The position numbers were made by a program, and so were the translations under genes. The notes under the pieces are model-generated. The model saw only the letters and a program-made list of their open reading frames with translations, had not been told where the DNA came from and did no database searches. Of a stretch of 64,000 bases of DNA, positions 3,735 to 61,523 are shown piece after piece. Position 1 is the first letter of the stretch. Each line of letters opens with the position of its first letter. Origin of the DNA: Eubacteriales bacterium (GTDB taxonomy: Bacteria > Bacillota > Clostridia > Oscillospirales > CAG-382); assembly GCA_045533895.1 (NCBI GenBank), contig JAZSIT010000045.1, positions 2,499-66,498 of the forward strand. The letters are read 5' to 3'.

Positions 3735-5466
3735 AAATTCGCGGTAAGCCGCTTAAAGCTCCGCACATAACCGAAAATAATAATATAACCGACGGGGAAC
3801 GCCATATTCCGCCAAACACTCCGCATATAGCCAAAAGGCACACAAAGGAGACGGCGGCGGAAGCGGAAAATTTGGAAACGCCCTGCATCTTCCCCGAAAC
3901 AGAGGAAAGTCCCCTGCGCAATAAAAACACGGCGGCGATAACAAACAGCGTTACTGCAAACCAGCCGCCCGCTATTACCAAAGCCGAATAAACATCTGTA
4001 TCCGAAGCGCCTGAATAGCCTGCACTGCGAAAGGCGAAATTAAAAGCTTCTTTTCCCAAGCCCACACCGTAAAGTCCATGCTTGTTCATGGTATCGACTG
4101 CGGCGGAGGAGCCGAAAGACGGGATATACATATCTCCCTTTATTATTCCCGTAGCAAACAAAACCATTACCGCGCCTGCCGAAAGCAAAGCGCCGAAAAT
4201 AATTCCGATACGTTTGCGGAAGCACACCAGCAAAAACAGTGCCGTTACACCGATAACGGAAAGATACATCCACTCGGAAAAGGCGAGTGCGACTGCCGCG
4301 AAGACAGCGATACAGCAAGCAGTTCCCGAAGAAAACACACCTCTGCTGAAGGCGGTGCACAGCGCTGCGGGAAGCAGTATGGGGAGCATAAAGGAATACG
4401 CGCTTTTACTGCTAATATATGCGCCGAGGGCGCCTAACTCTCCCCCAAACAATGCGGAAAAAATACAACACATCGCCAGAATGAGTGTTCCGCTGTTGAG
4501 TGCGCTCATAAGACGGTAAAGCTGTTTGCCGCTTCGCATAAGGTTGGCGCAAAGGAGATACAATGCGGCAACGGTGAGAACCACGGGGAATGTTTCCTTA
4601 TAAGCAAAGGGAGTGACCAAGCCTGCCACGGAAATGGATATCATAAACAAAAACACAAAGATATCCGCCGTCGTAAGATAAAAATTGCGTTTGCCGATAA
4701 GAAGCTTATAAATATAGCTTACTACTGCCACAAGTGCCACTGCGGCAGATACCCAGGGGGACGCAAATGGTAAAAGGAAAACGGATACGTACAACCCGCC
4801 CTCCGGTGAATAAATGACTATGGCAACACCTGCCAGCGCCAATAAAAACAAAATTATATTAAGGGGAGAAACGAAAAAGCCTGCGATACCCGCCACAGTG
4901 CCGAAAAGCACCGCCCAGCCGATATGCTTGCCCGCCTGCACCTCTGTATCCAGTGCAAAGGGGCTTACAGCCAACATTTCCTCTGTTATATACGAAGTTA
5001 ACCGTCCGCGGCGTATACACCCCAGCAGACTTCTGCGAACAGGCATAAGAATAAGACCGATAAAAGCGATTACCGCCGAATATATCAGATCCAATATATC
5101 GCCTGCGTCATCCGCATACAGCTTTATTAAAAACGCTGCAGCAGAATAAAGACCGACAAAAAACAAAAATACTCCGACACTTCCGACGGAGGTATCCAGC
5201 ACCCATCTGCAAAAAGCGGAAAGGCGGGAAATCACGCGGCTTTTCTCAGCAAAAGCGGCGAGAAAGGTACGCGACTTCGCGGCATAGCCGGATATTTTAC
5301 TGTATAAAGAACCGAGCATACCGCCGGAAAGCAAAGCGTCCTCTTTGAGAACACCGTTCTTTTTGCCTCTTGCGGAAATGCCCGTATCGGGAAAAAGGCG
5401 CGACCAAATACGGCTCCCGCCCAAGAGCCGTGAAAAATACGAGCCGATTTTGCCGCGTCCTTTCAT
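3697..5466 (-). CDS. Large polytopic membrane protein (O-antigen ligase/polymerase-like; function uncertain)
   Basis: 589 aa with at least 12 hydrophobic segments. The start overlaps the trmD stop (ATGA). The family assignment is only a guess from architecture. Confidence 0.6.
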   Translation of the reverse strand: MKGRGKIGSYFSRLLGGSRIWSRLFPDTGISARGKKNGVLKEDALLSGGMLGSLYSKISGYAAKSRTFLAAFAEKSRVISRLSAFCRWVLDTSVGSVGVFLFFVGLYSAAAFLIKLYADDAGDILDLIYSAVIAFIGLILMPVRRSLLGCIRRGRLTSYITEEMLAVSPFALDTEVQAGKHIGWAVLFGTVAGIAGFFVSPLNIILFLLALAGVAIVIYSPEGGLYVSVFLLPFASPWVSAAVALVAVVSYIYKLLIGKRNFYLTTADIFVFLFMISISVAGLVTPFAYKETFPVVLTVAALYLLCANLMRSGKQLYRLMSALNSGTLILAMCCIFSALFGGELGALGAYISSKSAYSFMLPILLPAALCTAFSRGVFSSGTACCIAVFAAVALAFSEWMYLSVIGVTALFLLVCFRKRIGIIFGALLSAGAVMVLFATGIIKGDMYIPSFGSSAAVDTMNKHGLYGVGLGKEAFNFAFRSAGYSGASDTDVYSALVIAGGWFAVTLFVIAAVFLLRRGLSSVSGKMQGVSKFSASAAVSFVCLLAICGVFGGIWRSPSVILLFSVMCGALSGLPRIYEREAGQTNEIE

Positions 5467-6164
5467 TCTTTCGTTTCCTCGTTTTCCTTACGGATAAGGT
5501 CCGGGCGCTTACGCTTGGTGCGGAGCAAGGATTGCTCTGCCTGCCACTTCTTTATCTCGGCATGATTGCCGTTTACAAGCACCTCGGGCACCTCAAGTCC
5601 TTCAAAAACTCTGGGGCGCGTATACTGGGGATATTCCAGCAACCCGTCCGATAAGCTTTCTTTTTCGTAACACTCGGGATCTTTAAGCACGCCTTCAAGA
5701 AGACGGGCTGTAGCATCAACCACTATCTCTGCCGCTATCTCACCGCCTGTGAGAACGTAATCTCCGATAGAGATCTCCTCGTCTATCTCAAGTTCGATAA
5801 CTCTTTCGTCTATGCCCTCGTAATGACCGCACAAAAGAATGAGGTTATCGTACTGCAAAAGCTCTTTCGCCTTTTGCTGGGTAAACAGACTTCCCTGAGG
5901 GGAAAAGTATATTGTTCTCACTGTTCCCTTAAGGTTGCTTTTTACAGCGCGGATACAGTCAACTATAGGCTGACAAGCCATAACAAGACCAAAGCCGCCG
6001 CCGTAGGGAGAGTCGTCCACACGGCGGTGCTTATCCTTGGTATACGCTCTGATATCGTTTGTATTAAGTGTGAAAATACCTTTTGCCCGTGCTCTGCCGA
6101 TAATGCTGGTGTTAAAATAATTATCCAGCATATCGGGGAACAGGGTCAATATCTCGTAATGCAA
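5463..6164 (-). CDS. trmD: tRNA (guanine37-N1)-methyltransferase TrmD
   Basis: MHYEILTLFPDMLDNYFNTSIIGRA...DDSPYGGGFGLVM...LLCGHYEGIDERV. Confidence 0.95.
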   Translation of the reverse strand: MHYEILTLFPDMLDNYFNTSIIGRARAKGIFTLNTNDIRAYTKDKHRRVDDSPYGGGFGLVMACQPIVDCIRAVKSNLKGTVRTIYFSPQGSLFTQQKAKELLQYDNLILLCGHYEGIDERVIELEIDEEISIGDYVLTGGEIAAEIVVDATARLLEGVLKDPECYEKESLSDGLLEYPQYTRPRVFEGLEVPEVLVNGNHAEIKKWQAEQSLLRTKRKRPDLIRKENEETKE

Positions 6165-6973: not shown

Positions 6974-7216
6974 TTACTGTACGCCGGTTTTCTTAAGAAG
7001 AGCTCTAACAGTATCGGTAGGCTGTGCGCCCTTGGAGATCCAATCCTTAGCCTTGTCGCCGTCGATCTTGATCTCTGCAGGCTCCTTCATAGGATCATAG
7101 TAACCGATCTCTTCGATAAATCTACCGTTTCTGGGGTAGCGAGAGTCTGCTACTACTACTCTGTAAAAGGGAGCCTTCTTTGCGCTCATTCTTCTGAGCC
7201 TGATTTTTATTGCCAT
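6974..7216 (-). CDS. rpsP: 30S ribosomal protein S16
   Basis: [42 protein letters not shown]. Confidence 0.97.
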
Positions 7217-7267: not shown

Positions 7268-7390
7268 ACTTAATTGTGGGCGTGAGTATTTCGGGGTCCC
7301 CGCAAAAGCGTTTTTTCGTGATATGCTTTGTCTGTAGGGGTGTTTCGTGAAACACCTACAGTGTCCAAAAAACCTTTTGTGGGGTGAATA
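7268..7390 (-). repeat. Intergenic mosaic repeat (GGGGTCCCC family), locus A, between ffh and rpsP
   Basis: Contains tcGGGGTCCCCGCAAAAGCGTTTTTTCGTGATAT...TTCGTGAAACACC...CAAAAAACCTTTTGTGGGG. Aligns nearly base-for-base with 31990-32139 except for one extra unit there. Confidence 0.8.
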
Positions 7391-8728
7391 TTAAAATCCA
7401 AAGTTGCCGAAACGCATTTTTTTACTGCCTTTTCCGGTCTGCTGCTTTGCCATCTGCTTCATAAGCTTGTTTACCTGCTCATACTGCTTAAGCAGACGGT
7501 TTACCTCCTCCACAGGTCTGCCGCAGCCTGCGGCTATACGCTTTTTGCGGGAAGAGTTTATAATATCCGGCTTTGCCCTCTCCTTGGGAGTCATGGAAAG
7601 GATTATACCTTCCATACGGGCTATCTGTCTCTCGTCGATCTGTGCATCCTTGAGCTGGGAGGGCTTTATTCCCGGCATCATGCCAAGAAGCTGCTCCATG
7701 CTGCCCATGTTTTTTATCTGTCTGAACTGGTCAAGATAATCGTCCAGTGTGAAGGAAGATTCAAGGAACTTTTTCTCAAGCTCCGCCGCTTTCTTTTCAT
7801 CAAACTGCTGCTCCGCCTTTTCGATAAGGGACAGCACGTCACCCATACCGAGTATACGGGACGCCATTCTGTCAGGATGGAAAGGTTCGATATTATCTAT
7901 CTTTTCGCCTACGCCGATAAACTTAATGGGCTTGCCGGTAACGTGTCTTACCGAAAGTGCCGCACCGCCTCTTGTATCACCATCCAGCTTGGTGAGGATG
8001 ACGCCCGTAATATCCAGCAGATTGTTAAAGCTTTCTGCTACATTGACAGCGTCCTGACCCGTCATGGCATCTACTACCAACAGAATCTCGGTAGGGTTAA
8101 CCTCTTCGCTTATACGCTTTAATTCAGCCATAAGCACTTCGTCTATATGCAAACGACCTGCCGTATCCACAAAGACCATATCGTGGCCGTACTTACGGGC
8201 ATGGACAAGCGCCTCACGTGCGGTTTTTACGGGGTCTTGGGTGCCGCGCTCAAAAACCTGAACGCCTGCCTGCTCGCCCACTATCTTCAACTGGTCGATA
8301 GCGGCGGGACGGTAAATATCGCAGGCTACGAGCAAAGGATTCTTGCCCTGCTTTTTATACATACGGGCAAGCTTTGCGCAGTGGGTGGTCTTACCGCTAC
8401 CCTGAAGACCGCACATAAGCACTACCGTGGGAGGTGCGGAGGATATGGTAAGCTTTGAGTTACTGCCGCCCATTAGAGCAACCAATTCTTCGTTAACTAT
8501 TTTTACTATTTGCTGTGCGGGAACAAGGCTTTGCATAACGTCCGCGCCCACAGCACGCTCGGACACCTTGGCAACGAAATCCTTAACTACCTTGAAGTTT
8601 ACGTCCGCTTCCAACAGCGCAAGCTTGACTTCACGCATACCTGCCTTTACGTCGGCCTCGGTAAGTCTGCCCTTGTTGCGGAACTTCTTCAAAGCACCCG
8701 TCATTTTTTCTGCAAGACTTTGAAACAT
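7391..8728 (-). CDS. ffh: Signal recognition particle protein Ffh
   Basis: Start at MFQSLAEKMTGALKKF with a GGGAG RBS. GLQGSGKTT, DTAGR and TKLDGD GTPase motifs. Met-rich M domain. Confidence 0.96.
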   Translation of the reverse strand: MFQSLAEKMTGALKKFRNKGRLTEADVKAGMREVKLALLEADVNFKVVKDFVAKVSERAVGADVMQSLVPAQQIVKIVNEELVALMGGSNSKLTISSAPPTVVLMCGLQGSGKTTHCAKLARMYKKQGKNPLLVACDIYRPAAIDQLKIVGEQAGVQVFERGTQDPVKTAREALVHARKYGHDMVFVDTAGRLHIDEVLMAELKRISEEVNPTEILLVVDAMTGQDAVNVAESFNNLLDITGVILTKLDGDTRGGAALSVRHVTGKPIKFIGVGEKIDNIEPFHPDRMASRILGMGDVLSLIEKAEQQFDEKKAAELEKKFLESSFTLDDYLDQFRQIKNMGSMEQLLGMMPGIKPSQLKDAQIDERQIARMEGIILSMTPKERAKPDIINSSRKKRIAAGCGRPVEEVNRLLKQYEQVNKLMKQMAKQQTGKGSKKMRFGNFGF

Positions 8729-8729
8729 T

Positions 8730-9041
8730 TTATTCTCCCAACAGGCTCTCGGCAACCAAGCGTACCTCTGCGGAATCTGTAATGGAAATTATCTTTTCCG
8801 CCGCGCTCTTTACCGCTTGCCCTCTCTCATATACGTGTAAACACTCTTCAAGCTCATACAGTCTTTCCTCGCCGTGCTTGATAAGGTCTCTCACCGCCTG
8901 ACGGGTTATACCGGATTGCTCCGCTATCTCCGCAAGAGAAAGATCCTCGTTATAATAAAGGTCAAGCGCGTCCCTCTGACGGGGGGAAAGCACACGGGAA
9001 TAACAATCGAACAGCAAGGATATTCTCTCTCTTCCGTTCAT
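8730..9041 (-). CDS. ylxM: YlxM/UPF0122 putative DNA-binding protein
   Basis: MNGRERISLLFDCYSRVLSPRQRDALDLYYNEDLSLAEIAE (sigma-70 region-4-like HTH). Conserved position upstream of ffh. GGAGG RBS. The 63-aa upstream ORF extension is rejected. Confidence 0.88.
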   Translation of the reverse strand: MNGRERISLLFDCYSRVLSPRQRDALDLYYNEDLSLAEIAEQSGITRQAVRDLIKHGEERLYELEECLHVYERGQAVKSAAEKIISITDSAEVRLVAESLLGE

Positions 9042-12060: not shown

Positions 12061-12073
12061 GAGCAAAAAATTA

Positions 12074-12111
12074 CCCCGCGAATGATTTGTATGCATTCGC
12101 GGGGCGTTTTT
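12074..12111. terminator. Bidirectional hairpin terminator between convergent genes
   Basis: CCCCGCGAATG (9-nt loop) CATTCGCGGGG, flanked by an A-run and a T-run. Confidence 0.7.
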
Positions 12112-29998: not shown

Positions 29999-30040
29999 AC
30001 ACGGCGGAGAAAGTTTTCCTTTCTCCGCCGTGTTCTTTTT
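29999..30040 (+). terminator. Intrinsic terminator
   Basis: ACACGGCGGAGAAAG-loop-CTTTCTCCGCCGTGT followed by TCTTTTT. Confidence 0.85.
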
Positions 30041-30070
30041 GCGGGGGTATCCTTTTTTGGGGTATCCTTT

Positions 30071-30111
30071 TTGTATCATTGTGTCGAAGTTCGTAATATA
30101 TTGATATTACG
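30071..30111 (+). promoter_or_regulatory. Putative promoter (TTGTAT-17-TAATAT) overlapped by a 20-bp palindrome, a Zur/Fur-family-like operator candidate
   Basis: CGTAATAT-attg-ATATTACG at 30092-30111. The half-sites resemble Firmicute Zur-box halves TCGTAAT/ATTACGA but with a longer spacer. Sits directly upstream of a ZIP transporter gene. Confidence 0.35.
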
Positions 30112-31912: not shown

Positions 31913-31945
31913 AAAGGCTCTGCGTACGCAGAGCCTTTGGTTTTG
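31913..31945 (+). terminator. Palindromic terminator (left copy)
   Basis: AAAGGCTCTGCGTACGCAGAGCCTTT followed by GGTTTT, 4 nt after the hydrolase stop. 23/26 identical to 35048-35073. Confidence 0.75.
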
Positions 31946-32139
31946 TGGGATATATATTCGGGGTCCCCGCAAATCAAGGATTTGTGGGGTGTATATTTTG
32001 GGTCCCCGCAAAAGTGTTTTTTCGTGATATATGCCTTCTGTAGAGGTGTTTTGGGGTTCCCATAAAATCCGCAGGATTTTAGGGGTGGTTTTTCGTGAAA
32101 CACCCACGGCAACCAAAAAACCTTTTGTGGGGGGTATTT
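31941..32139 (-). repeat. Intergenic mosaic repeat (GGGGTCCCC family), locus B, about 4 units
   Basis: Units: TTCGGGGTCCCCGCAAATCAAGGATTTGTGGGG; TTGGGTCCCCGCAAAAGTGTTTTTTCGTGATAT; GGGGTTCCCATAAAATCCGCAGGATTTTAGGGGTGG (reverse complement of the 47.3-kb unit); TTCGTGAAACACCC...CAAAAAACCTTTTGTGGGGGG. Abuts the ABC exporter stop codon. Confidence 0.85.
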
Positions 32140-33852
32140 TTACTGTGAAATGGTAAACAGAGAATAAAAATATCCTTTTTTGGAAATAAGCTCGTCAAAG
32201 GTACCGATCTCGACAGCAGTCCCGTTTTTTAGTGTGATAATACCGTCATATCGTCTTAACAGCCCTTCATCAAGATCGTGAGTAACAGTGATGCAGGTGA
32301 TGCCGTCAAGCCCCAGAATGGACGAGGACACCTGATATGCCGTTTCCGCATCAAGGGAGGCAGTGGCTTCGTCAACCAAAAGCACACTTGAATTTTTGAG
32401 CAGACTGCGTGCGATTGAAACGCGCTGTTTTTCGCCTCCGGAAAGGAAAACACCGTTTTCACCGCACAAATAATCCTCACCCTTGCTTTCCGCAAGAAGG
32501 GAAAGCCCCGAAAGCCGCATTGCGTCCGATACCTGCTCATCGGAAAAATCACTGAACATAGTAATATTATCACGGAGGGACGCATTGAATACAAAGACGT
32601 TTTGCTGAATAATGCTTTGCATATCGTAAAGATTGCCGCTGTCGATACTGCGAAGCTCGGTATCATCGTAATATATTCCGCCCTCGTAATCGTGGTAGGA
32701 GGACATCAACAAATTAAGTAAAGTAGATTTTCCGCTTCCCGACGCGCCGACGAGAGCGTACTTTTTACCTGCCTCGAAGGTGACGTTAAGATTTTTCAGC
32801 ACTGTTTTTTCCTCATCATAGCCAAAGGTGACGCCGCGCAGAGTTATTCCTCTTTCAAGCGCGGTAACCGAGCAGTCGCCTCCGTCGGCTTTGTTTTCTT
32901 CAAGAGCGGAGGCAATTTTTTCCACAAGTCCACGGGCGGATTTATATTCCGCAAGGCAGGTGGGAATTACCGAAATGGGCTGTATGATATAGTTCATCAT
33001 CTGAACAAAGACCATTACCGTACCCGCAGTAATACCCTTGCCCGAAAGAGCAAGATATGCGCCGAACAAAAACACGCCCAGTTGTGCGACAATTCCCGCA
33101 ATAGCGCCGAACATTTGAACCAAAACAAGTATTTTTTCTTTTTCACCTTTGGCTTTTGCTAAGTTTTTTACCTTTTCGCCAAAGATTCGGCACATCTGCG
33201 TTTCTGCCTTAAAGGATTTTATAACGGTAAATCCGCCGATACAATCCTTTAACGACATGGTATATTCCTCGTTATGGATAGACACACTTTTTTCCGCCTG
33301 CTCTGCCTTACCGCCCGTTATAATTGCCGCCAGAACGGGCAAAAGGGAAAGCAAAACGGCAACGAGAGTGAGAAGCGGGCTGTACCATATCATCATAACA
33401 ACCGCGCCGATGAGAAGAGGCAGACATTCGCCGACAACAAAAATATTTGAAATATACCCCTTCTCTACCGCCGCAATATCGTTGGTCAAGGCTGATACGT
33501 AAAGAGAAGATCTTTCTTTTGAAAAGGCAGATATCTTCTTTTGGGTAAGAATGCGGAATATATATTCTTTGTACTGCGCCATACCCTTTGAAATAAGTGC
33601 GGGTTTTGTATGGTAGATTATAAAATAAATCACCGCCACGGCAAAAACAAGACAAAGGGTGATAACGGCAAGCTCTGTAAGTCCAAGCGCCTTTTCACTG
33701 CCGCTTACAAGGTCTACAAGCTGTTGTAAAAGCCACGCCACCGCGAGATTTGCGGCAACATTTAACAGCGAAGCCAGTGTCATAAGCACAAAAGGCAATG
33801 CATTACCTTTATAAAACTGCTTTACAAAGGGACGAATATTGGTTTGTTTCAT
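32140..33852 (-). CDS. ABC exporter, fused TMD-NBD half-transporter
   Basis: 570 aa with 6 TM N-terminal half. GASGSGKST, LSGGEKQR, VLLVDEATASLD. Confidence 0.92.
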   Translation of the reverse strand: MKQTNIRPFVKQFYKGNALPFVLMTLASLLNVAANLAVAWLLQQLVDLVSGSEKALGLTELAVITLCLVFAVAVIYFIIYHTKPALISKGMAQYKEYIFRILTQKKISAFSKERSSLYVSALTNDIAAVEKGYISNIFVVGECLPLLIGAVVMMIWYSPLLTLVAVLLSLLPVLAAIITGGKAEQAEKSVSIHNEEYTMSLKDCIGGFTVIKSFKAETQMCRIFGEKVKNLAKAKGEKEKILVLVQMFGAIAGIVAQLGVFLFGAYLALSGKGITAGTVMVFVQMMNYIIQPISVIPTCLAEYKSARGLVEKIASALEENKADGGDCSVTALERGITLRGVTFGYDEEKTVLKNLNVTFEAGKKYALVGASGSGKSTLLNLLMSSYHDYEGGIYYDDTELRSIDSGNLYDMQSIIQQNVFVFNASLRDNITMFSDFSDEQVSDAMRLSGLSLLAESKGEDYLCGENGVFLSGGEKQRVSIARSLLKNSSVLLVDEATASLDAETAYQVSSSILGLDGITCITVTHDLDEGLLRRYDGIITLKNGTAVEIGTFDELISKKGYFYSLFTISQ

Positions 33853-35045: not shown

Positions 35046-35079
35046 AAAAAGGCTCTGCGCGTGCAGAGCCTTTGTTTTT
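35046..35079 (-). terminator. Palindromic terminator (right copy) of the P-type ATPase gene
   Basis: AAAGGCTCTGCGCGTGCAGAGCCTTT flanked by A5 and GTTTTTG, 7 nt after the ATPase stop. Confidence 0.8.
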
Positions 35080-35080
35080 G

Positions 35081-37693
35081 TTATTTGTGCTTTTTAAGAA
35101 GTCCCATAGCCTTTACAAGCTCCATTACCACCAGAGGAACAAATATGAGTCCCAATGCGATGAGGTACAGATGCCAAGGCAGGTATACCAGGCCGAAAAC
35201 AACGGAAACGGGAGTGAACAGCACGATAGCCATTAAGACTATTGCGATAGCCGCCGCCTGATTGAGCTTTTTATTGCCAAAGAAGCCGATGCGGAACAGC
35301 GAACGGTCGGACCGCATATTATATGCCTGAACTATCTGGGAGAACGCCAGCACTGCGAATGCCATTGTCTGACCTGCGCTTTCGCCTGCGGCATTAAGAC
35401 CTATTGCGTATGCGGCAAGTGCAAGAGCACCGAACATTATACCCTGAAGCACTATTCTCACACCGTAGCCGTGAGCAAACAGACCTTCTGTCTTGGGTCT
35501 GGGAGGAACGTCCATAATATCCTTTTCGGTAGGCTCCATACCCAGAGCGATGGCAGGCAGACCGTCTGTAATAAGGTTTATCCAAAGAAGCTGCATTGAC
35601 ATAAAGGGGCTCTTGTGCCAGATTAGCATTGCCACGAAAACAGACACAACTTCACCGAAGTTGGTGCCCAACAGGAAGCCTACAACCTTCTTGATATTGG
35701 TGTAGATGCCTCTGCCCTCTTTTACAGCGTCAACGATAGTGGCGAAGTTATCGTCGGAAAGGGTCATATCCGATGCGCCCTTTGCAACGTCGGTACCGGT
35801 AATACCCATTGCACAGCCGATATCGGCGGCTTTAAGTGCAGGCGCGTCGTTAACGCCGTCACCGGTCATGGAAACAACATGTCCCTTCTTTTGCCAAGCC
35901 TTAACAATTCGTATCTTGTTTTCGGGAGAAACGCGGGCGTATACCGAGATATCCTCCACGCAGGCGTCAAGCTCCGCTTCGGACATACTGTCAAGCTCGG
36001 TGCCCGTAACGGCACGCTGACCGGGACGGAGTATGCCAAGCTCACGGGCGATGGCGGATGCGGTAATAATATGGTCGCCGGTTATCATAACGGGGCGTAT
36101 GCCTGCGCGCAGACAGGTTGCAACCGCCGCCTTTGCCTCGGGACGAGGCGGGTCGATCATACCCAGAATACCCATAAAGGTAAGACCGTTTTCAAGGGCT
36201 TCGGGAGTGATTTCGGCAGGAAGCTCGTCAATAACCTTATATCCCACCGCAAGCACACGGAGTGCGTCCTCGCTGAGAAGCTCGGTAAAGCGCTTGGCTT
36301 CGTCGATATTACCCTTAACGCAACGGGATGCCATTACGTCAAACGCGCCCTTTACGATTACAGTTATCTTTCCGTCGATGTTATTGACAGATGTCATAAG
36401 CTTTCTGTCAGAATCGAAGGGAATGGTAGCAAGACGGGGATAAGCGGCGTTAAGCTCCTCCTTGGACATACCGTTGTTATATGCCGCAAGGACGATAGCA
36501 GTTTCCGTAGGGTCGCCGATATGGGTGACCTTATCCGCCTCAACCAAAACAGAACCGTCACTGCACAGAGTTCCGTATGCGAGAAGCTTTTTCATATCCT
36601 CGCTGTTGGTGTGGGAGATATCCTCGGAGTTCTTCTCCCCTTCTACCCAGCCTTTTACCAAGGTCATACGGTTTTGGGTGAGAGTGCCTGTTTTATCCGA
36701 ACAAATAATAGACGCGCCGCCCAGAGTTTCTACTGCGGGGAGACGGCGGATAACAGCGTTTTTCTTTGCAAGGCGCTGTACGCCGATGGAAAGAACTATG
36801 GTTACGATTGCGGGAAGTCCCTCGGGTATTGCGGAAACGGCGAGGGAGACTGCTGTCATAAATATCTCAAGAGGGTTAAGATCATTAATAAGTCCTACGA
36901 TAAATATGACAACACATATACCGAGGGCGAGAAAACCAAGATATTTTCCCAGTTTTGCAAGCTTTTTCTGCAGAGGGGTCTGACCTTCGTCTTCGCCCGA
37001 AAGAAGGGCTGCTATTTTGCCCATCTCGGTTTCCATACCGATATTGGTTACCACTGCGGTAGCGGTACCGTAGGTAATGCTACAGCCGGAATAAACCATA
37101 TTGCTGCGGTCACCCAGAGGAGAATCCTCGCCTACCAAGGCAGACGCATCCTTTTCCGTGGGGACAGATTCGCCTGTCAAAGCAGATTCTTCGCTCTTAA
37201 GAGAGGCACTGTATATAAGGCGGGCATCTGCAGGTACGAAATCGCCTGCTTCCAGCTTGATAATATCACCGGGAACCAAGGCGGAAGCCATAACTACCTG
37301 CTCCTTACCGCTGCGGATGACTCGGGAGTGGGGCGCGGACATACTCTTTAGTGCTTCAAGAGCTTTTTCCGCCTTACTTTCCTGCATAACGCCCATAATG
37401 GCGTTTACAACAACTATAACAAGGATAAGCAACGGCTCGAAAAAGCCTTTAGCCTCCCCCTCAAGACAAGCAACGACAAAGGAAACTGCCGCCGCCGCAA
37501 GGAGAATAATAATCATAACGTCCTTAAACTGGTCAAGAAACTTAAGGAACATTCCTTTTTTCTTTTTGCCCTTCAACACGTTGGCGCCGTACTGCGCCTG
37601 ACGGGAAGCGACCTCTTCCGCCGACAGACCTGTATTAACGTCGGTCTGTAAAGCCTTAAGCGTGTCTTCGCAATTCAAATTGTGGTAATTCAT
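35081..37693 (-). CDS. Calcium-translocating P-type ATPase (P2A/P2B type)
   Basis: CSDKTGTLTQN, MITGDH, MTGDGVNDAPALKAADIG. 870 aa with 10 TM. Confidence 0.92.
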   Translation of the reverse strand: MNYHNLNCEDTLKALQTDVNTGLSAEEVASRQAQYGANVLKGKKKKGMFLKFLDQFKDVMIIILLAAAAVSFVVACLEGEAKGFFEPLLILVIVVVNAIMGVMQESKAEKALEALKSMSAPHSRVIRSGKEQVVMASALVPGDIIKLEAGDFVPADARLIYSASLKSEESALTGESVPTEKDASALVGEDSPLGDRSNMVYSGCSITYGTATAVVTNIGMETEMGKIAALLSGEDEGQTPLQKKLAKLGKYLGFLALGICVVIFIVGLINDLNPLEIFMTAVSLAVSAIPEGLPAIVTIVLSIGVQRLAKKNAVIRRLPAVETLGGASIICSDKTGTLTQNRMTLVKGWVEGEKNSEDISHTNSEDMKKLLAYGTLCSDGSVLVEADKVTHIGDPTETAIVLAAYNNGMSKEELNAAYPRLATIPFDSDRKLMTSVNNIDGKITVIVKGAFDVMASRCVKGNIDEAKRFTELLSEDALRVLAVGYKVIDELPAEITPEALENGLTFMGILGMIDPPRPEAKAAVATCLRAGIRPVMITGDHIITASAIARELGILRPGQRAVTGTELDSMSEAELDACVEDISVYARVSPENKIRIVKAWQKKGHVVSMTGDGVNDAPALKAADIGCAMGITGTDVAKGASDMTLSDDNFATIVDAVKEGRGIYTNIKKVVGFLLGTNFGEVVSVFVAMLIWHKSPFMSMQLLWINLITDGLPAIALGMEPTEKDIMDVPPRPKTEGLFAHGYGVRIVLQGIMFGALALAAYAIGLNAAGESAGQTMAFAVLAFSQIVQAYNMRSDRSLFRIGFFGNKKLNQAAAIAIVLMAIVLFTPVSVVFGLVYLPWHLYLIALGLIFVPLVVMELVKAMGLLKKHK

Positions 37694-45895: not shown

Positions 45896-46606
45896 GTGCA
45901 GGATATTTGCATATTCAGGCGGGTGGAAAAAAAGTACCCCATAAACACACAAAAAAAGAATATGCTCCTTAACGCCATTTCCCACCGTCTGGTGGCGGAT
46001 GCCCACGGAAAAAGCACAGTGTGCTCGCTTTATCTCGACACGCCGGACAGATTGCTGATACGCAACTCCATGACGGCGACCACCTACAAGGAAAAGCTTC
46101 GCCTGCGAAGCTACGGCACACCGGAGAGTGACACAGAGATATTTTTTGAAATTAAAAAGAAATATAAAGGCGTAGTATACAAGCGCAGAGTGAAAATGCC
46201 GCTTTCGGAGGCGGAAGATTATATCCGTACAGGAATTATGCCGCAAAAAAACCAGATAATGTCGGAGATAGACTATGCAATGAGGTTTTACCGAAGTCCA
46301 CTTCCGTCTATGCTTATCGCATACGAAAGAGAGGCGTATTTCGGCAAGGAGGACGACGGATTGCGTATCACCTTTGACACGGCGATACGTTACAGAGAAA
46401 CGGATTTGGATATGACCCAAGGCAGTTACGGTGCTGAGATAACCGACAAAGACCTATGGATAATGGAAATAAAGACCAACGGCGGTATGCCCGTATGGCT
46501 TGCAAAGGCGCTGGACGAATGTGAGATATATCCGTCCCGCTTTTCCAAATACGCAAATGCGCATATTCTGTCTATAAAAGAAAAAGCAAGGGAGATTAGT
46601 GTATGA
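45896..46606 (+). CDS. VTC-domain (polyphosphate-polymerase-like, CYTH/tunnel fold) protein
   Basis: FRRVEKKY...YLDTPD...YKEKLRLRSYG...FFEIKKKYKGVVYKRR...WIMEIKT pattern of bacterial VTC-domain proteins. GTG start. Confidence 0.75.
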   Translation: MQDICIFRRVEKKYPINTQKKNMLLNAISHRLVADAHGKSTVCSLYLDTPDRLLIRNSMTATTYKEKLRLRSYGTPESDTEIFFEIKKKYKGVVYKRRVKMPLSEAEDYIRTGIMPQKNQIMSEIDYAMRFYRSPLPSMLIAYEREAYFGKEDDGLRITFDTAIRYRETDLDMTQGSYGAEITDKDLWIMEIKTNGGMPVWLAKALDECEIYPSRFSKYANAHILSIKEKAREISV

Positions 46607-47268
46607 ACAGTATATTTGGTTCGGTGCTCGGCACAGAAGTTACTTTAACGGCGTTTCTTATATGTCTGGGAGGCGCGCTGGTATGCGGTATAATTACCGC
46701 CCTTTCCGCCGCTTTCAAAAACCGCGTAAGCAAAAGCTTTTTTGTTTCGCTTATATTGCTTCCCATGATAGTGGAAACGGTAATAACCATGGTAAACGGA
46801 AATATTGGAACCGGCGTTGCGGTAATGGGCGCGTTTTCTTTGGTAAGATTCCGTTCCGTACCGGGAAAAGCGAAGGATATAGTTGCAATTTTCCTTGCAA
46901 TGACGGCAGGTCTTGCGTGCGCATCGGGTTATGTGGGTATCGCTGTGCTGTTCACCCTTATCATAAGTGTTATAACCATACTGCTTTCGCTTATTAAGTT
47001 TGGTGACGAAAAGCTTTTACTGCTTAATGTAACCGTACCCGAATCCCTTAATTTCGCCCACGGACTGGACGATGTTTTCGCGGAGTATACAAAAAAATAC
47101 TACCTCACCGCTACCCGCACCACAAATATGGGAAGCCTGTATAAGCTTACATATAAAATTGAGCTTAAAAACAAAGAGAAAATGCAGGAATTTATAGATG
47201 CTCTCCGTTGCCGCAACGGAAATTTGGAGATAATGATAACCGACGCACCTGACACCGAAGAATTATAA
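46603..47268 (+). CDS. DUF4956 membrane protein
   Basis: 221 aa with 4 TM N-terminal half containing GAFSLVRFRSVPGKAKDI. ATGA overlap with the VTC gene. Confidence 0.75.
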   Translation: MNSIFGSVLGTEVTLTAFLICLGGALVCGIITALSAAFKNRVSKSFFVSLILLPMIVETVITMVNGNIGTGVAVMGAFSLVRFRSVPGKAKDIVAIFLAMTAGLACASGYVGIAVLFTLIISVITILLSLIKFGDEKLLLLNVTVPESLNFAHGLDDVFAEYTKKYYLTATRTTNMGSLYKLTYKIELKNKEKMQEFIDALRCRNGNLEIMITDAPDTEEL

Positions 47269-47272
47269 AAAG

Positions 47273-47476
47273 TTACCCCACAAAAAATCACCCCTAAAAT
47301 GCTGCGCATTTTTGGGTCCCCCAAAAAAAATCACCCCTAAAATGCTGCGCATTTTTGGGGACCCCAAAAAAAAATCACCCCTAAAATGCTGCGCATTTTT
47401 GGGGACCCCGAAAAAAATCACCCCTAAAATGCTGCGCATTTTTGGGGACCCCGAAAAAAATCACCCGCACAAAAGC
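47273..47476 (+). repeat. Tandem array: 4 full and 1 truncated copies of a 43-44 bp unit (GGGGACCCC family), locus C
   Basis: Units start at 47288, 47331, 47375 and 47418, with a truncated copy at 47461. Unit sequence is TCACCCCTAAAATGCTGCGCATTTTTGGGGACCCC(G/A)A7-9. Units 3 and 4 are identical. Confidence 0.95.
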
Positions 47477-47510
47477 AAAAGGAGCCGATTTTGGCTCCTT
47501 TTTTTGTTTG
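47475..47510. terminator. Bidirectional terminator
   Basis: AAAA-GGAGCC-gatttt-GGCTCC-TTTTTTT. Confidence 0.85.
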
Positions 47511-47511
47511 T

Positions 47512-48660
47512 TTAATACAAATAATATTCTTTTATGCTTTGCTCGTAATCGGCGAGGGCGGGAGCTATGGCAGAGAGATACTGCTCTGCGCAGAAGCCGT
47601 CCGACCGTATAACGTCTGTGCCGAAAAGCAAATCTATAAAGGCTTTGCCACCTTGAGAGTAGGGCGGTAAAAATGCAAAATCCGCAAAATTCTTACGTAT
47701 TATATCCAAAAGATAAAGCCCTGCTGTAAAGGGAGAAAACTCTCTTTTATCCGTAATATGCAAATACACGCCGCCACACACCTTTCCCGAATGCTTTGAG
47801 AAGGTGGGAGTGAAATAGCATTCCCGCGCCTTTACACCGGGCAGACAAAGGAAGTTGAACTCGTCTGCAATTTTGCCCCCGTCAAGGTTAGGCGCGCCTA
47901 CAGCGTGGAAGGGATATGTGGTGCCTCTGCCCTCGGAAAGGTTAGTTCCCTCAAAAAGGCAGGTACCGATATAGCAAAATGCGGTATCCGAGGTTGGAAT
48001 ATTGGGCGAGGGCGGCACCCAGAAAAGGTCGGTATCATCATAAAACAAATCTCGTGTCCAGCCGGAAAGGGGTATGACCTCAAGGTCACAGCCGATTCCG
48101 AAACGATAGTTTATATACCGCGCATATTCGCCGATGGTGAGATTGTGGCGCACCGCAAGGGGATATCTGCCCACGAAGGATGAGAAGGCGGAATCGAGAA
48201 TATTACCCTCTGCTTTGTTGCCGCCAAGAGGGTTTATGCGGTCAAAAACTACCATTTTTTTGTTTGCCGCAGCGCAATCCTCCATAGCGTAGGAAAGGGT
48301 ATACATATAGGTATAATATCTGGCGCCTATATCCTGAATATCAAAAGCAACTATATCAAGAGTATCCAGCACGTCCCTCGGAATATGAGGAACACTGCCG
48401 TAAAGGCTGTAAACGGGAAGTGAGGTTTTTTCATCAATATAAGCATCCACGTAACTGCCTGCTTGGGCGTTGCCGCGTACACCGTGCTCAGGAGAAAACA
48501 TACACGAAAGCACTCCCATTTTATGCAGTATATCTGCCGTGGAAACAAGGGACTTATTTATCCCCGTGGGGTTGGTGATAAGTCCTGCGCGAGCGCCGTT
48601 AAAAAGATGTGAATATTTGTCAATACGGTCGATACCGCTTAAAACAGCTGATTTTCCCAT
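47512..48660 (-). CDS. namZ: DUF1343 protein (exo-beta-N-acetylmuramidase NamZ/YbbC family)
   Basis: Start at MGKSAVLSGIDRIDKY...GLITNPTGI...FSPEHG. The upstream 108-aa ORF extension overlaps the preceding gene and is rejected. Confidence 0.82.
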   Translation of the reverse strand: MGKSAVLSGIDRIDKYSHLFNGARAGLITNPTGINKSLVSTADILHKMGVLSCMFSPEHGVRGNAQAGSYVDAYIDEKTSLPVYSLYGSVPHIPRDVLDTLDIVAFDIQDIGARYYTYMYTLSYAMEDCAAANKKMVVFDRINPLGGNKAEGNILDSAFSSFVGRYPLAVRHNLTIGEYARYINYRFGIGCDLEVIPLSGWTRDLFYDDTDLFWVPPSPNIPTSDTAFCYIGTCLFEGTNLSEGRGTTYPFHAVGAPNLDGGKIADEFNFLCLPGVKARECYFTPTFSKHSGKVCGGVYLHITDKREFSPFTAGLYLLDIIRKNFADFAFLPPYSQGGKAFIDLLFGTDVIRSDGFCAEQYLSAIAPALADYEQSIKEYYLY

Positions 48661-48661
48661 G

Positions 48662-49690
48662 TTACTCCTCCGAAAAGACAGTATCGTAAAACTCTCTGCG
48701 TATGGCGGTAAGCCCGTAGTTTTCCCTTGTGGGGTGGACACGGTTTGTAAGCAACACGCCGTAAACCCCCGTTTTGTTATCCACAAAAAGAGAGGTTCCC
48801 GTAAAGCCCGTATGTCCGTAACTGCCCACAGACATTTTACTTCCGCCGGGGAAGGGCTTATTTCCGAAAAGCTGGAAGCCAAGACCCCTGTTTTCCGAAA
48901 AATCGGATGTGTAGTCGGTAACCGCTTTTTCAAAAAGAGTGGGTGATATATACCCTTTTCCCCTGCCCGACAGCATGGAAGCAAACTTCACCGTATCGCC
49001 CAGAGTGCAGAAAATACCTGCATTGCCCGAAACACCGCCGAGAAACCGCGCGTTTTCATCGTGAACGACACCGCAGACGATTCCATCGCCGAAAACATCC
49101 TTTTCGGTGGCGGCGCAGGGATGAGAAACGGGGGGATTGTAAAAGGAATTTTTCATTCCCAAAGGCCCAAACACCTTTTCCCCAACTATTTTATCAAGGG
49201 GCTTTCCTTCTATTTGTTCAAGAATTTTGCCGAGAAGTATAAATCCCATACAGCTATACACGGTCTTTGTACCCGTGGGATAAGCAAAAGGATATTTTAA
49301 TATTTCTTGTGCGGCGTTTTTCGGGTCCTCTGTCCGATACAAGGGGAAGTGAGCGGGAATACCCGAAGTATGGGTGAGAAGCTGAAAAACAGTTATATCT
49401 TCCTTCCCGAAGCAATTATCAAAATATTTGCCCACTTTGTCTGTAAGCTGTATCCTACTTTCCTCTATCATGCGCAGACACGCCATGGTTGTGCCGATAA
49501 GCTTGGTAAGTGACGCCATATCAAAAAGTGTATCCTCGGTGATAGGCAGCCTTTCGGGCAGAAGGGCGCGGTCGCCTGCGTAGTCGTAGTACAGCACTTC
49601 CTCTCCCCTGCCAACGGAGGCGGCAAAGCAAGGATATGCACCGGATTCTGTTCCGCCGCGAAGAATATCCGAAATTTTTAACGTATTCAT
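48662..49690 (-). CDS. Beta-lactamase-fold serine hydrolase (AmiE/YbbE-like candidate)
   Basis: SLTK (SxxK) motif. 342 aa. Adjacent to namZ, as amiE is to ybbC in Bacillus. Confidence 0.75.
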   Translation of the reverse strand: MNTLKISDILRGGTESGAYPCFAASVGRGEEVLYYDYAGDRALLPERLPITEDTLFDMASLTKLIGTTMACLRMIEESRIQLTDKVGKYFDNCFGKEDITVFQLLTHTSGIPAHFPLYRTEDPKNAAQEILKYPFAYPTGTKTVYSCMGFILLGKILEQIEGKPLDKIVGEKVFGPLGMKNSFYNPPVSHPCAATEKDVFGDGIVCGVVHDENARFLGGVSGNAGIFCTLGDTVKFASMLSGRGKGYISPTLFEKAVTDYTSDFSENRGLGFQLFGNKPFPGGSKMSVGSYGHTGFTGTSLFVDNKTGVYGVLLTNRVHPTRENYGLTAIRREFYDTVFSEE

Positions 49691-59031: not shown

Positions 59032-60807
59032 ATGGCTAAAAAGAAAGAAAAAGAAACTGTAAAGAAGGAAAAGAAGGCGCCTGTTAAGGCAAAGAAAATA
59101 AAAGAACCAAAAAACAAGACACCCCGTCCCGAGAAGGGCGAAAAGCTTAAGGTAATACCTATCGGCGGTGTTGACGGTATCGGCATGAATATGACACTCC
59201 TTGAGCACGGCGAGGATATTATCGCTGTGGACTGCGGCGTGTCTTTCCCGCAGGACGATATGCCCGGCGTTGACCTTGTAATACCCGATTTTACCTATCT
59301 ACTCCGCAACGAGGACCGCTTCCGCGCACTTATCCTCACCCACGGACACGAGGACCATATCGGTGCGGTGCCTTATCTGTTAAAGCAGATAAACGTGCCT
59401 GTATACGGCACCCGTCTTACGCTGGGGATACTGAAATTAAAGCTGGCGGAGCACGGTATTAAAAATCCCGACCTGCGCGAAGTTTATCCCGGTGACACAG
59501 AGGATTTCGGAAGCGCGTTTAACGTTGAGTTTATCAAGGTAAATCACTCCATACCCGATGCGGTGGCGCTGTGCGTTACCACTCCCGTGGGCAGAGTTAT
59601 CCACACGGGAGATTTCAAAATAGACCTCACCCCCACCGAGGGCGACAAGCCTATTGACCTGTACCGTCTTGCGGCGCTGGGGCACAAAGGGGTAAAGCTG
59701 CTTATGGCAGATTCCACCAATGCGGAGCGTGAGGGTTACACGCCCTCCGAGAGCATTGTGGGTCTGTCTTTTGACAAGATATTTTATAACTGCGAAAAGC
59801 GTATTGTAATAGCGACCTTTTCCTCCAACGTGCACCGTATACAGCAGGTTATTAACGCCGCCGTAAAGTACGGCAGAAAGGTGGCTGTAACGGGCAGAAG
59901 CATGCTTAACGTGGTGAAAGCCGCCACCGAGCTGGGATATATGTGGGTGCCCGAGGGAACTATTATAGACCCTGCTGAAATGAAGCTGTATAAAGACAGC
60001 CAGCTCACTCTCCTTACCACGGGAAGCCAGGGCGAGCCTATGAGCGGTCTTTACCGTATGGCAAACGGAGAGCATTCTCTTATTTCTCTTGGCAGAAACG
60101 ACTTAGTAGTATTGTCTGCATCTGCCATTCCCGGCAACGAAAAGCTTATTGGAAACATTGTAAACTGTCTGTGGAAGCGCGGTGCTGAGGTTATGACAGT
60201 GGACACCGAGGAAAGCGTACACGTTTCCGGTCACGCCTGCAGAGAAGAATTAAAGCTTATGCACGCGCTGACAAAGCCCGAATTTTTCGTGCCTCTTCAT
60301 GGCGAATATAAGCATCTGTGCGCACACGCGGCGTTGGCGAAGGAAATGGGTATGTCCGGCAAGAACATTCTTATACCCGAAAACGGAAAGATTATTGAGG
60401 TGGGCAAGCGCGGTCTGGCGTCCGGCGGAACAGTGCCCGCAGAGCAGGTGCTTGTTGACGGTTACGGCGTGGGCGACGTAGGCGCTACCGTTCTGAAGGA
60501 CAGACTGCATCTGGCGGAGGACGGTATAATAGTCGTGTCTGCCACTGTGGATTTTACCATTCAGGAAATGACCGCAGGACCGGAAATATTGACAAGAGGC
60601 TTTGTTTACGCAAAAGAAAACGAAGATCTGCTTGATGATCTTACGGACAAGGCGGCAGAACTGATAAGAAAAGCGGTATACAACGGAAAGCCTGATATGT
60701 ATGCCCTTAAGGAACGGGTGAAGACTTCCCTTTCCTCCTACGTTTACGGAAAGACCAAGAAAAAGCCTATTGTTCTCCCCGTATTTACGGAGAGCGAAAT
60801 ATATTAA
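59032..60807 (+). CDS. rnj: Ribonuclease J with a Lys-rich N-terminal extension of about 38 aa
   Basis: KVIPIGGVDGIGMNMTLLE, THGHEDHIGAVPYL. Beta-CASP plus C-terminal domain. No in-frame alternative start between 59032 and the conserved core. Confidence 0.92.
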   Translation: MAKKKEKETVKKEKKAPVKAKKIKEPKNKTPRPEKGEKLKVIPIGGVDGIGMNMTLLEHGEDIIAVDCGVSFPQDDMPGVDLVIPDFTYLLRNEDRFRALILTHGHEDHIGAVPYLLKQINVPVYGTRLTLGILKLKLAEHGIKNPDLREVYPGDTEDFGSAFNVEFIKVNHSIPDAVALCVTTPVGRVIHTGDFKIDLTPTEGDKPIDLYRLAALGHKGVKLLMADSTNAEREGYTPSESIVGLSFDKIFYNCEKRIVIATFSSNVHRIQQVINAAVKYGRKVAVTGRSMLNVVKAATELGYMWVPEGTIIDPAEMKLYKDSQLTLLTTGSQGEPMSGLYRMANGEHSLISLGRNDLVVLSASAIPGNEKLIGNIVNCLWKRGAEVMTVDTEESVHVSGHACREELKLMHALTKPEFFVPLHGEYKHLCAHAALAKEMGMSGKNILIPENGKIIEVGKRGLASGGTVPAEQVLVDGYGVGDVGATVLKDRLHLAEDGIIVVSATVDFTIQEMTAGPEILTRGFVYAKENEDLLDDLTDKAAELIRKAVYNGKPDMYALKERVKTSLSSYVYGKTKKKPIVLPVFTESEIY

Positions 60808-60821
60808 AGGGAGAAAGCAAG

Positions 60822-61523
60822 ATGAAAAGCGTACTCATTACCGGCGCATCCCGCGGTATCGGCGAAGAATGTGCAAGAGTATTTGCCAAAAACGGCTGGA
60901 AGGTATACCTTAACTGCCGCAAAAACGTGGCGTTGCTTGAAGAATTAAAAAACGAGCTTCCCGACAGCGAGATTGTCCCTTTTGACGTTTCGGACAAAAG
61001 GGCGGTTTATGAGAATATAGAAAAGCTTGATATAGACTGTCTGGTAAACAATGCGGGAGTTGCATTGTTTTCCCCCTTTGACGCGGTTACGGATGAGCAG
61101 GAGCAAGCACTTTACGGCACCAACCTCTTTGGTGTGCTCAACTGTTCCCGTGCGGTGCTTCCCCAAATGATACGCCGCAAAAGCGGCTGTATAATCAATC
61201 TTTCTTCCATGTGGGGAGAAGCGGGCGGAAGCTGTGAGGTAGACTATTCTGCGGCGAAGGGCGCAGTGATTTCCTTTACAAAAGCCCTTGCCAAGGAGGT
61301 TGGTCCCTGCAATATCAGAGTAAACTGCGTGTGTCCCGGTGTTATCGATACGGACATGAACGCCCATCTCTCCTTTGCGGAAACCCAGGCACTGGTAGAG
61401 GAAATACCTTTGGAGCGTCTTGGCAGAGGCGAGGACGTGGCAAACGCCGTGTATTTTCTGGCAACCGAGAAAGCCGACTATATTACCGGCGCGGTATTGG
61501 ATGTTAACGGCGGGATAATATAA
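60822..61523 (+). CDS. Short-chain dehydrogenase/reductase (FabG-like)
   Basis: TGASRGIG, NNAG, YSAAK. Confidence 0.88.
   Translation: MKSVLITGASRGIGEECARVFAKNGWKVYLNCRKNVALLEELKNELPDSEIVPFDVSDKRAVYENIEKLDIDCLVNNAGVALFSPFDAVTDEQEQALYGTNLFGVLNCSRAVLPQMIRRKSGCIINLSSMWGEAGGSCEVDYSAAKGAVISFTKALAKEVGPCNIRVNCVCPGVIDTDMNAHLSFAETQALVEEIPLERLGRGEDVANAVYFLATEKADYITGAVLDVNGGII

Follow-up and report, generated by a model that had tools for sequence, protein, structure and literature searches.

The tandem array at 47 kb in the stretch of DNA analysed here (64,000 nucleotides of contig JAZSIT010000045.1 from the Eubacteriales bacterium assembly GCA_045533895.1, hereafter the window) is attributed, with a probability of roughly 0.55, to the local amplification of one unit of a short, structured, interspersed repeat family. 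On this reading the family belongs specifically to a clade of Oscillospiraceae-like, uncultured gut Clostridia, and its members are non-autonomous mobile or converting elements. That the family is real, undescribed and similar in organisation to the repetitive extragenic palindromic (REP) and BOX repeats can be stated with high confidence. The specific model of targeting and mobility set out further below is put forward tentatively.

Tandem Repeats Finder places the array at 47275-47466, with a period of 43, 4.4 copies, 95% matches and a score of 340. Four complete copies of the plan TCACCCCTAAAATGCTGCGCATTTTTGGGGACCCC(A/G)A7-9 begin at 47288, 47331, 47375 and 47418; the third and fourth are identical, the first carries the variant GGGTCCCCC, and the array closes with a partial TCACCC at 47461 followed by GCACAAAAGC. 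This is the arrangement that a model had described from the letters alone (the earlier note), and all of its structural statements on the array, including a foldable stem with 11 of 12 positions paired, proved correct. The 27-nt hairpin core occurs four times against a chance expectation of 0.00, and GGGGWCCCC five times against 0.33. The surroundings read, in order, as the TAA stop codon of a DUF4956 protein gene (47266-47268), the sequence AAAGTT, by which the stop lies 6 nt ahead of the repeat block, the leader ACCCCACAAAAAA, the four units, the partial unit, a bidirectional terminator and the end of a convergent minus-strand gene at 47512 (Table 1). Among the 68 arrays compared, this is the largest copy of the family that was found. 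Folding of the entire array was uninformative on its true structure, as the minimum-energy solution pairs halves of adjacent identical units.

Comparison of 34 distinct cores reveals a common plan, (A-rich)-(T)CA-CCCC-x-arm(7)-loop(3-4, mostly TGC or TTGC)-arm'-y-GGGG-A-CCCC-G. The unit is a self-contained hairpin module. CCCC and GGGG form a clamp, inside which one position is conserved as unpaired and a 7-bp arm is free in sequence; the 3' foot is followed by a tag, ACCCC-G, that does not vary. Conservation is highest in GGGGACCCC and CACCCC, and essentially all units are flanked by (A)ATCA or AAACA on the 5' side and by ACCCCG on the 3' side. The earlier note had proposed a dispersed GGGG(A/T)CCCC family; a real dispersed family exists, although it is better defined by the hairpin feet CCCC...GGGG-ACCCC than by GGGG(A/T)CCCC alone.

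Selection on the hairpin is evident from covariation. In an alignment of 29 distinct units, which had been chosen with a pairing filter, 91.7% of the cells of the 12-pair helix are paired and 44 double-sided compensatory changes are found, as compared to 14.1 ± 2.7 in column shuffles (none of 500 shuffles reached 44) and to 7 or fewer in controls where the partner was slid by 1-3 columns. Two of the pairs display all four Watson-Crick types in these units. The x.y position (7/26) is unpaired in 21 of the 29 (T.T or A.C), and in most units it is a mismatch on both strands. Flank-defined units from outside the search pattern behave alike, with at least six contiguous Watson-Crick pairs inside x.y in 20 of 28 distinct sequences (shuffle probability ~0.001 each). 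The intra-strand hairpin is under selection. Arms that are free in sequence but still complementary point to pairing within one strand, be it RNA or single-stranded DNA, and not to sequence-specific duplex recognition; the covariation has no bearing on which strand is the active one. A covariance model built from 29 distinct units (R1) scores the reverse strand of units at just 12-22 bits, compared to up to 58 bits for the forward strand, showing the element to be clearly polar.

In addition to this short unit, a long form is observed, which measures 91-133 nt in the window and reads CACCCC-A-CAAAAGG...(inner hairpin GGTGTTTCACGAAACACC)...CTTTTG-C-GGGG-ACCCC-GA. It folds as one extended hairpin and has the same feet, unpaired position and 3' tag as the short unit, so that inverted termini of ~11 nt (CCCCACAAAAG / CTTTTGCGGGG) are common to both. 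The inner hairpin also covaries (TG/CA, CG/CG, TA/TA).

R1 identifies six canonical units in the window, i.e. the four of the array (36-58 bits) and two on the minus strand of a block at 32 kb. The latter correspond to reverse-complement units that had been claimed at 31941-32139 (47 and 46 bits). One of them (32053-32087) is nested in a 133-nt long form that begins 5 nt past the stop codon of a minus-strand ABC-transporter gene (32140-33852). Its ATCC/GGAT arms are compensatory relative to the array units, and in the same unit of strain L058 a C-to-A change turns the window's C.T mismatch into an A-T pair. A further reverse-complement unit claimed at 7268-7390 is not there (model E=1.7); in its place stands a 91-nt long-form relative, beginning 6 nt past the ffh stop codon, with feet CCCC...GGGGACCCC that are the same as those of the unit. 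The loci at 47, 32 and 7.3 kb share one layout, a stop codon followed by a sense-oriented array, which is succeeded by a terminator at 47 and 32 kb and by the next gene of the operon at 7.3 kb.

The single unit proposed at 2263-2296 lies below detection by the covariance model. Still, the syntenic locus L014, which is 76% identical across 8 kb, shows it to be a degenerate family member: L014 has a plain, uninterrupted terminator, GGGAGGGG-CAAAC-CCCCTCCCC, whereas the terminator loop in the window holds ~44 extra bases, including CCCC-G-AAAAATGC...GGGGG-ACCC. The possible remnant at 30041-30075 belongs to a separate 15-bp repeat, GGGGTATCCTTTTTT, present in 2.4 copies at 30035-30073 just past a terminator and not called as a family member by the covariance model. 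All loci of the family in the window are intergenic, as had been stated.

To what extent the family occurs elsewhere was addressed by scanning one genome per species (185,579 species) with the hairpin pattern. The scan retrieved 45 loci in 11 species-level assemblies, so the family is not confined to a few loci. Ten of the assemblies are metagenome-assembled genomes (MAGs) of uncultured Clostridia, Eubacteriales or Oscillospiraceae, most of them from the hindgut of goat, cattle, yak, buffalo and water deer, and the eleventh is represented by one short contig binned as Anaerolinea. On that 3.4-kb contig (L052) a perfect unit core at 3207-3241 is embedded in G+C-rich flanks unlike those of every other locus, for which mis-binning or a rare transfer may be responsible. 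Identity to syntenic genes of the window is only 68-80% in these MAGs, and the family accordingly covers at least genus-level divergence; metagenome contigs with exactly the same DUF4956 protein share 90-98% identity with the window. Bystander units that do not match the pattern appear at ~1 cluster per 19 kb in the fetched flanks. With four loci in the 64 kb of the window, the overall density is ~1 locus per 16-19 kb, and by extrapolation a genome may contain on the order of a hundred loci.

Searches of other collections gave little. No match to the repeat was obtained in the plasmid collection or among viral contigs (0 matches), and in the phage collection only the generic terminator at 47477-47519 was matched. 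A linker-pattern scan of Joint Genome Institute metagenomes returned two true loci (L055 and L056) and two chance matches. In Rfam, only a tRNA-Leu reached threshold in the window; the best array matches were at chance level, far below gathering scores. Literature searches on the motif, or on REP-like repeats in Firmicutes or Oscillospiraceae, found nothing relevant, and a report on REP families lists none for this Firmicute clade (PMC3733652). The earlier remark that the sequence was not recognised as a described family is in line with these results. Exact-sequence look-ups of flanking proteins (a 321-aa open reading frame (ORF), Ffh and S16) returned no records and no further alleles.

Turnover of the repeats is apparent at orthologous sites. 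Contigs that encode a 100% identical DUF4956 protein carry markedly different sequences after its stop codon: L006 is a zero-unit allele with only ACCCCACAAAAAATCACCCGCAC, a solo linker without hairpin; L004 has at least one unit, L001 and L002 have two and the window has four; L007 has a different unit type, L003 a long form and L005 a truncated long form. A unit also directly follows the same stop codon in L013, a MAG ~70-75% identical to the window. Similarly, the ffh-rpsP spacer is occupied by a long form in the window and by two short units in L014. The spacer between the genes at 59032-60807 and 60822-61523 is empty in the window, with a length of 14 nt (60808-60821), while the orthologous spacer of L044 (4310-4373) contains a 63-nt unit-containing insertion directly downstream of the TAA stop. 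TTAACA is found at both junctions of this insertion, a possible target duplication between species that are just 80% identical.

Of the 68 arrays, 46 are single units, 14 doublets and seven triplets, leaving the window as the one case with four. Periods range from 40 to 47 bp, with a mode of 43-44 bp, and adjacent units spaced by less than 200 nt form 33 pairs, each of them head-to-tail and none inverted. Units in other MAGs are nested within unrelated repeats and hairpins, and the host hairpins also exist uninterrupted. In L022 (MAG JAGALI01, 5140-5720) another tandem repeat of ~160 nt (...gcaacgacgaaattcgtagcttattactagccttggcttgg...) fills a 540-nt intergenic region; two of the three copies harbour a nested short unit at one and the same position, which in the remaining copy is taken up by other sequence. 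A syntenic perfect hairpin, CGGGTATCCCC-loop-GGGGATACCCG, is present in five MAGs (L012 at 5230-5470, L015, L016, L030 and L039), where it adjoins one or two copies of itself that hold a short unit in the loop. This second family of host hairpins has C4/G4 at the loop edge, and the GGGTATCC motif of the 15-bp repeat at 30035-30073 recalls it. Gene content can differ at the arrays as well. In L001 (10687-11905; the same in L002 at 4510-5730) a segment of ~1.1 kb with a minus-strand DUF3788/DUF3795 gene lies between two copies of a two-unit array followed by TCACCCGCACAAAAACAAAAGGAGCCGATT. These strains are 97-98% identical to the window, and their sequence departs from it exactly in the loop of the window's terminator, an arrangement which suggests that arrays or terminators may be points of recombination or insertion for accessory genes.

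The arrays are also polar in their placement. After removal of loci with the same 3' flank, 49 arrays could be classified, of which 19 have convergent gene neighbours and five divergent ones; with co-directional neighbours, 12 are in sense and 13 in antisense. A sense-strand 3' untranslated region (UTR) is the location of 31 of the 49 (~63%). Of 62 arrays, 15 have a stop codon no more than 7 nt away on the 5' side and 25 have one no more than 28 nt away, whereas on the 3' side of these arrays no stop codon is nearer than 37 nt. The two flanks also differ in structure: terminator-like hairpins occur in the 3' flank of 31 of 58 arrays and in the 5' flank of 4, and the mean folding energy of the 60-nt flank is -15.8 kcal/mol on the 3' side versus -7.4 kcal/mol on the 5' side (p=2e-9). 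Where the 3' end of a gene faces the 3' side of an array, a G+C hairpin stands in between in 29 of 32 cases, and the A-rich terminal linker of the array then is the U-tract of the terminator on the other strand. In summary, an A-rich linker connects the 3' side of the array to a G+C hairpin, which in most cases is a terminator.

In the mechanism proposed here, the units would either be non-autonomous mobile elements or serve directed gene conversion as substrates. Recognition of the folded single-stranded unit would fall to a trans-acting enzyme and rely on the CCCC/GGGG clamp, the unpaired position and the ACCCC tag, with clamp, mismatch and tag in the role that the GTAG tag has in REP. The preferred landing site of a unit would be an A-tract on the 5' side of an existing hairpin, which may be a terminator or another unit. 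As each unit would thereby recreate its own target, head-to-tail arrays would build up beside terminators, and could then expand or contract by replication slippage or unequal recombination. Most arrays would be transcribed in sense as 3' UTR between stop codon and terminator, and we infer that the hairpins act there as in REP and BOX, i.e. as barriers to 3'-exonucleases, as structure near the stop codon and as recombination hot spots. Protection of mRNA 3' ends is a known effect of REP, and Liang, Rudd and Deutscher reportedly found in 2015 that a REP within ~15 nt of the stop codon lowers translation. For the hairpins of both REP and BOX, roles as 3'-exonuclease barriers and as structure near the stop codon have been described (PMC3049150; PMC12320835).

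A more far-reaching version, which we regard as improbable, holds that the units are a new minimal mobile element of ~40 nt. The GGGG foot would serve as a self-carried guide that pairs with the CCCC of a single-stranded target beside an A-tract and hairpin, and the mismatch and ACCCC tag would mark the cleavage and joining site for a candidate single-copy, domesticated HUH-like or other enzyme. Such a system would be a REP/RAYT-like partnership of independent origin in Clostridia, strictly head-to-tail and terminator-targeting.

Several observations weigh against the attribution to mobile or converting elements. No RayT homologue or other transposase was found when six-frame ORFs of the window and ~440 kb of loci were searched by phmmer with a single E. 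coli RayT query (best E-value 1.3), a search with the limited sensitivity of one query; its outcome for the window agrees with the earlier note's statement. Pfam annotation of 10 genes beside divergently flanked or inverted units gave no transposase either, and no autonomous kb-scale element bounded by long-form termini exists in the ~440 kb around the repeats. Neither a clean target-site duplication nor an unambiguous empty site within one species was found, and the zero-unit allele of L006 keeps linker-like sequence, so it may represent a collapsed array rather than a naive target. That genomes only ~75% identical carry the repeat at the same sites, behind the DUF4956 gene and in the ffh-rpsP spacer, could as well be due to a host function or a safe-haven effect. 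Furthermore, 18 of the 49 arrays lie outside any sense-strand 3' UTR, hence RNA-level effects cannot be general, and a crude ORF heuristic supplied the gene calls behind these counts. Subfamily frequencies are biased, since a single search pattern yielded most of the units. Lastly, the copy-number alleles derive from short-read metagenome assemblies, which can collapse tandem repeats, although such collapse cannot explain the zero-unit or long-form alleles.

An alternative view, favoured by the conserved occupancy of orthologous sites, is that the repeat is a host-encoded, cis-acting RNA element, with 3'-UTR stabilisers or attenuators selected gene by gene and, in the reversed orientation (hairpin, then UGAUUUUUUU), tandem back-up terminators that insulate convergent genes. 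This view would also accommodate the 31 arrays located in sense directly between stop codon and terminator, the selected structure evident from covariation, and a reverse strand that reads as hairpin plus U-tract. We nevertheless consider it unlikely, because copy number and module type differ among strains with identical flanking proteins, down to the zero-unit allele, and because units are nested in other repeats and in terminator loops. Arrays between co-directional genes show no preference for either orientation, and units on the minus strand are not called by the terminator scan. Reverse-oriented arrays never abut a stop codon and sit behind an ordinary terminator, and hence would not be the primary terminator. 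A role of the units as primary terminators is generally improbable on these data: the reverse strand does read as hairpin followed by TGATTTTTTT, yet the scan gives no call, orientation is unbiased, and an ordinary terminator hairpin normally stands beside the array.

A DNA-level alternative takes GGGGACCCC, repeated about four helical turns apart, as a duplex binding site that recruits a dimeric nucleoid-associated protein or a site-specific recombinase, like dRS3 in the neisserial NIME repeats, and promotes exchange of flanking genes. The conservation maxima in GGGGACCCC and CACCCC, the modal period, the gene-bearing 1.1-kb segment of L001 and L002 between duplicated arrays, and the likewise mosaic and dynamic NIME arrays (PMC1797815) all fit this idea. 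Arms that vary in sequence yet stay complementary are instead the signature of intra-strand pairing, periods spread over 40-47 bp, 46 of the 68 arrays are single units, and no recombinase gene adjoins the arrays examined; we find this alternative quite improbable. The suggestion in the earlier note that the sites lie on one face of the helix is weakened by the same spread of periods and by the arm covariation, which favours pairing within a strand over phased duplex sites. Even less can be said for a classical MITE (miniature inverted-repeat transposable element), whose CCCC...GGGG feet would be terminal inverted repeats for the DDE transposase of an insertion sequence in the same genomes. The ~11-nt inverted termini of both forms and the possible TTAACA duplication around the L044 insertion speak in its favour. 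However, the constant sequences outside the feet differ between the two ends (...TCA at the 5' end, ACCCCGA at the 3' end), so the feet are not bordered by a target-site duplication, the ~440 kb around the repeats contain no kb-scale element with these termini, and the strict head-to-tail arrangement with linkers is atypical; the MITE explanation is thus highly improbable. That there is no family at all, and that the array owes its existence to tandem duplication at this one place, to a chance match or to faulty assembly, is a notion we give practically no weight. Tandem repeats can be mis-assembled from short reads, but the core has a chance expectation of 0.00, the units are told apart by distinguishing substitutions, the family recurs at 45 independent loci in 11 assemblies, and the same locus is found on independent contigs. 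A CRISPR array, dismissed already in the earlier note for want of spacers, was also rejected here. In CRISPR, identical repeats alternate with unique spacers of about 30-40 nt and foreign origin, accompanied by cas genes or a leader; here the segments of 19 nt that separate the conserved GGGGACCCC-linker-CACCCC parts show self-complementarity, covary and recur across loci, copies are dispersed, and most loci consist of a single unit.

Among small interspersed structured repeats this is a new family that falls into no named one, albeit with clear parallels, and the REP/BIME- or BOX-like organisation noticed earlier is supported. Like REP, the unit is an imperfect palindrome of the 20-40 nt kind with a conserved unpaired position (here 11-12 pairs and one conserved mismatch). 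As with REP/BIME, there are many dispersed extragenic copies, probably hundreds, that favour gene 3' ends and convergent pairs, often near stop codons and upstream of terminators, and composite arrays with several subfamilies per genome. In contrast to REP, BIME and REPIN, neighbours are always head-to-tail (33/33) and never alternate or invert. MIRU-VNTR loci of mycobacteria, where VNTR stands for variable-number tandem repeat, likewise consist of intergenic units of 40-100 bp, head-to-tail and in strain-variable copy number, and the STAR elements of Staphylococcus aureus of short G+C-rich motifs at ~40-bp intervals. MIRUs, however, lie inside operons, overlap with short ORFs and do not have a hairpin as their defining feature, and STAR spacers are not covarying palindromes. 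REP palindromes bear a conserved GTAG or CGTC tetranucleotide tag at one end (PMC3733652), whereas the feet here are CACCCC and GGGGACCCCG, with no such tag. In REP systems the repeats also flank RAYT, a Y1 HUH transposase present once in the genome.

The resemblance to BOX of Streptococcus pneumoniae includes a Gram-positive host, a module of ~45 nt (boxB) that is repeated head-to-tail in strain-variable copy number, stem-loops predicted upon transcription and an excess between convergent genes (PMC3049150). There is no sequence similarity to BOX, though, and constant terminal modules equivalent to boxA and boxC, which in BOX have inverted termini and enclose 0-n boxB modules, are missing; at the start of an array stands a long form or an A-rich leader, and at its end a partial unit or a terminator. 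Moreover, each unit by itself forms a whole hairpin whose feet are conserved, and units most commonly occur singly. NIMEs of Neisseria are intergenic mosaics in which a G+C-rich inverted repeat, ATTCCC-N8-GGGAAT, delimits A+T-richer modules; they are syntenic but dynamic and have been linked to the exchange of neighbouring genes (PMC1797815). Mosaic and dynamic arrays are common to both systems, and the array-flanked gene segment of L001 and L002 is comparable. However, dRS3 is a 20-bp inverted repeat that a phage recombinase uses as a duplex site, and the RS modules, of 50-150 bp, are mutually unrelated, while the repeats described here lack the dRS3 sequence, are built of related, covarying hairpins and revealed no link to recombinase or phage, with zero matches in viral contigs. 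SPRITE of the pneumococcus and other terminator-like repeats resemble the family in combining a hairpin with a U-rich tract on one strand and in their strong enrichment downstream of genes (PMC3049150), but the present units stand beside ordinary terminators instead of replacing them, and about half of the co-directional ones have the non-terminating orientation.

Repeats of the REP, BOX and NIME types have been studied mostly in Proteobacteria available in culture and in a small number of pathogens, and nothing comparable was found described for the abundant, uncultured Oscillospiraceae-like gut Clostridia of herbivores and humans. If a dedicated enzyme exists, it would provide a new tool for single-stranded DNA; if none does, the family would be a clean example of structure-preserving gene conversion. 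Head-to-tail growth by terminators, together with feet shared by short and long forms, offers a test of whether REP-like systems arise repeatedly with different enzymes. In practical terms, the family offers a VNTR-like marker for strain typing in metagenomes and probably causes contig breaks as well as artefacts of assembly or binning in these MAGs, and its arrays appear to serve as sites of recombination and gene insertion, as in L001 and L002.

Table 1 Features of the repeat family and its surroundings in the window
Feature	Position	Strand	Basis
Upstream DUF4956 protein gene, following a VTC-domain gene	46603-47268	+	ORF list; Pfam labels on identical genes in L001-L008
Leader ACCCCACAAAAAA; resembles the linker and the long-form 5' foot, kept in zero-unit allele L006	47275-47287	+	Sequence, allele comparison
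Unit 1, variant GGGTCCCCC	47288-47330	+	Covariance model, 36.4 bits
Unit 2, 44 nt	47331-47374	+	Covariance model, 52 bits
Unit 3	47375-47417	+	Covariance model, 58 bits
Unit 4, identical to unit 3	47418-47460	+	Covariance model, 58 bits
Partial unit and tail TCACCCGCACAAAAGC; identical tail after both arrays of L001	47461-47476	+	Sequence, allele comparison
Bidirectional intrinsic terminator AAAAGGAGCC-GATT-TTGGCTCCTTTT with T run, common to the convergent minus-strand gene 47512-48984	47477-47512	.	Terminator scan, both strands
Long-form unit CCCCACAAAAGG...CTTTTGCGGGGACCC, with the 133-nt form at 32000-32132	32000-32134	-	Sequence and fold; same structure in strain L058
Canonical short unit nested in the 32-kb long form	32053-32087	-	Covariance model, 47.2 bits; nhmmer
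Short unit with other arms, CCCC-A-CAAATC-CTT-GATTTG-C-GGGG-ACCCC	31959-31991	-	Covariance model, 45.7 bits
Bidirectional terminator separating convergent genes, 3' of the 32-kb block	31913-31946	.	Sequence; repeat pair
Long-form unit, 91 nt, in sense between ffh (7391-8755) and rpsP (6974-7216)	7294-7384	-	Sequence, fold, cross-genome comparison
Terminator hairpin GGGAGGGG...CCCCTCCCC, loop holding the degenerate unit (2263-2296, plus strand)	2246-2310	-	Comparison with L014; below covariance-model detection

Two further observations concern hairpins in the window that lack the full set of unit features. At 12072-12106, a hairpin CCCCGCGAATG-atttgtatg-CATTCGCGGGG with a T run has a C4/G4 foot as in the units, without the ACCCC tag or a leader; its model score is marginal (E about 0.06-0.16) and it probably is an ordinary terminator. 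Two intrinsic terminators at a distance of 3 kb, 31913-31946 and 35048-35081, share 88% identity across 34 nt (AAAGGCTCTGCG..GCAGAGCCTTTG), and a terminator GCCACGATTT(T)CTCGTGGC is found again in L036 and L048. Judging from these similarities, terminator hairpins themselves may be copied between loci in this clade.

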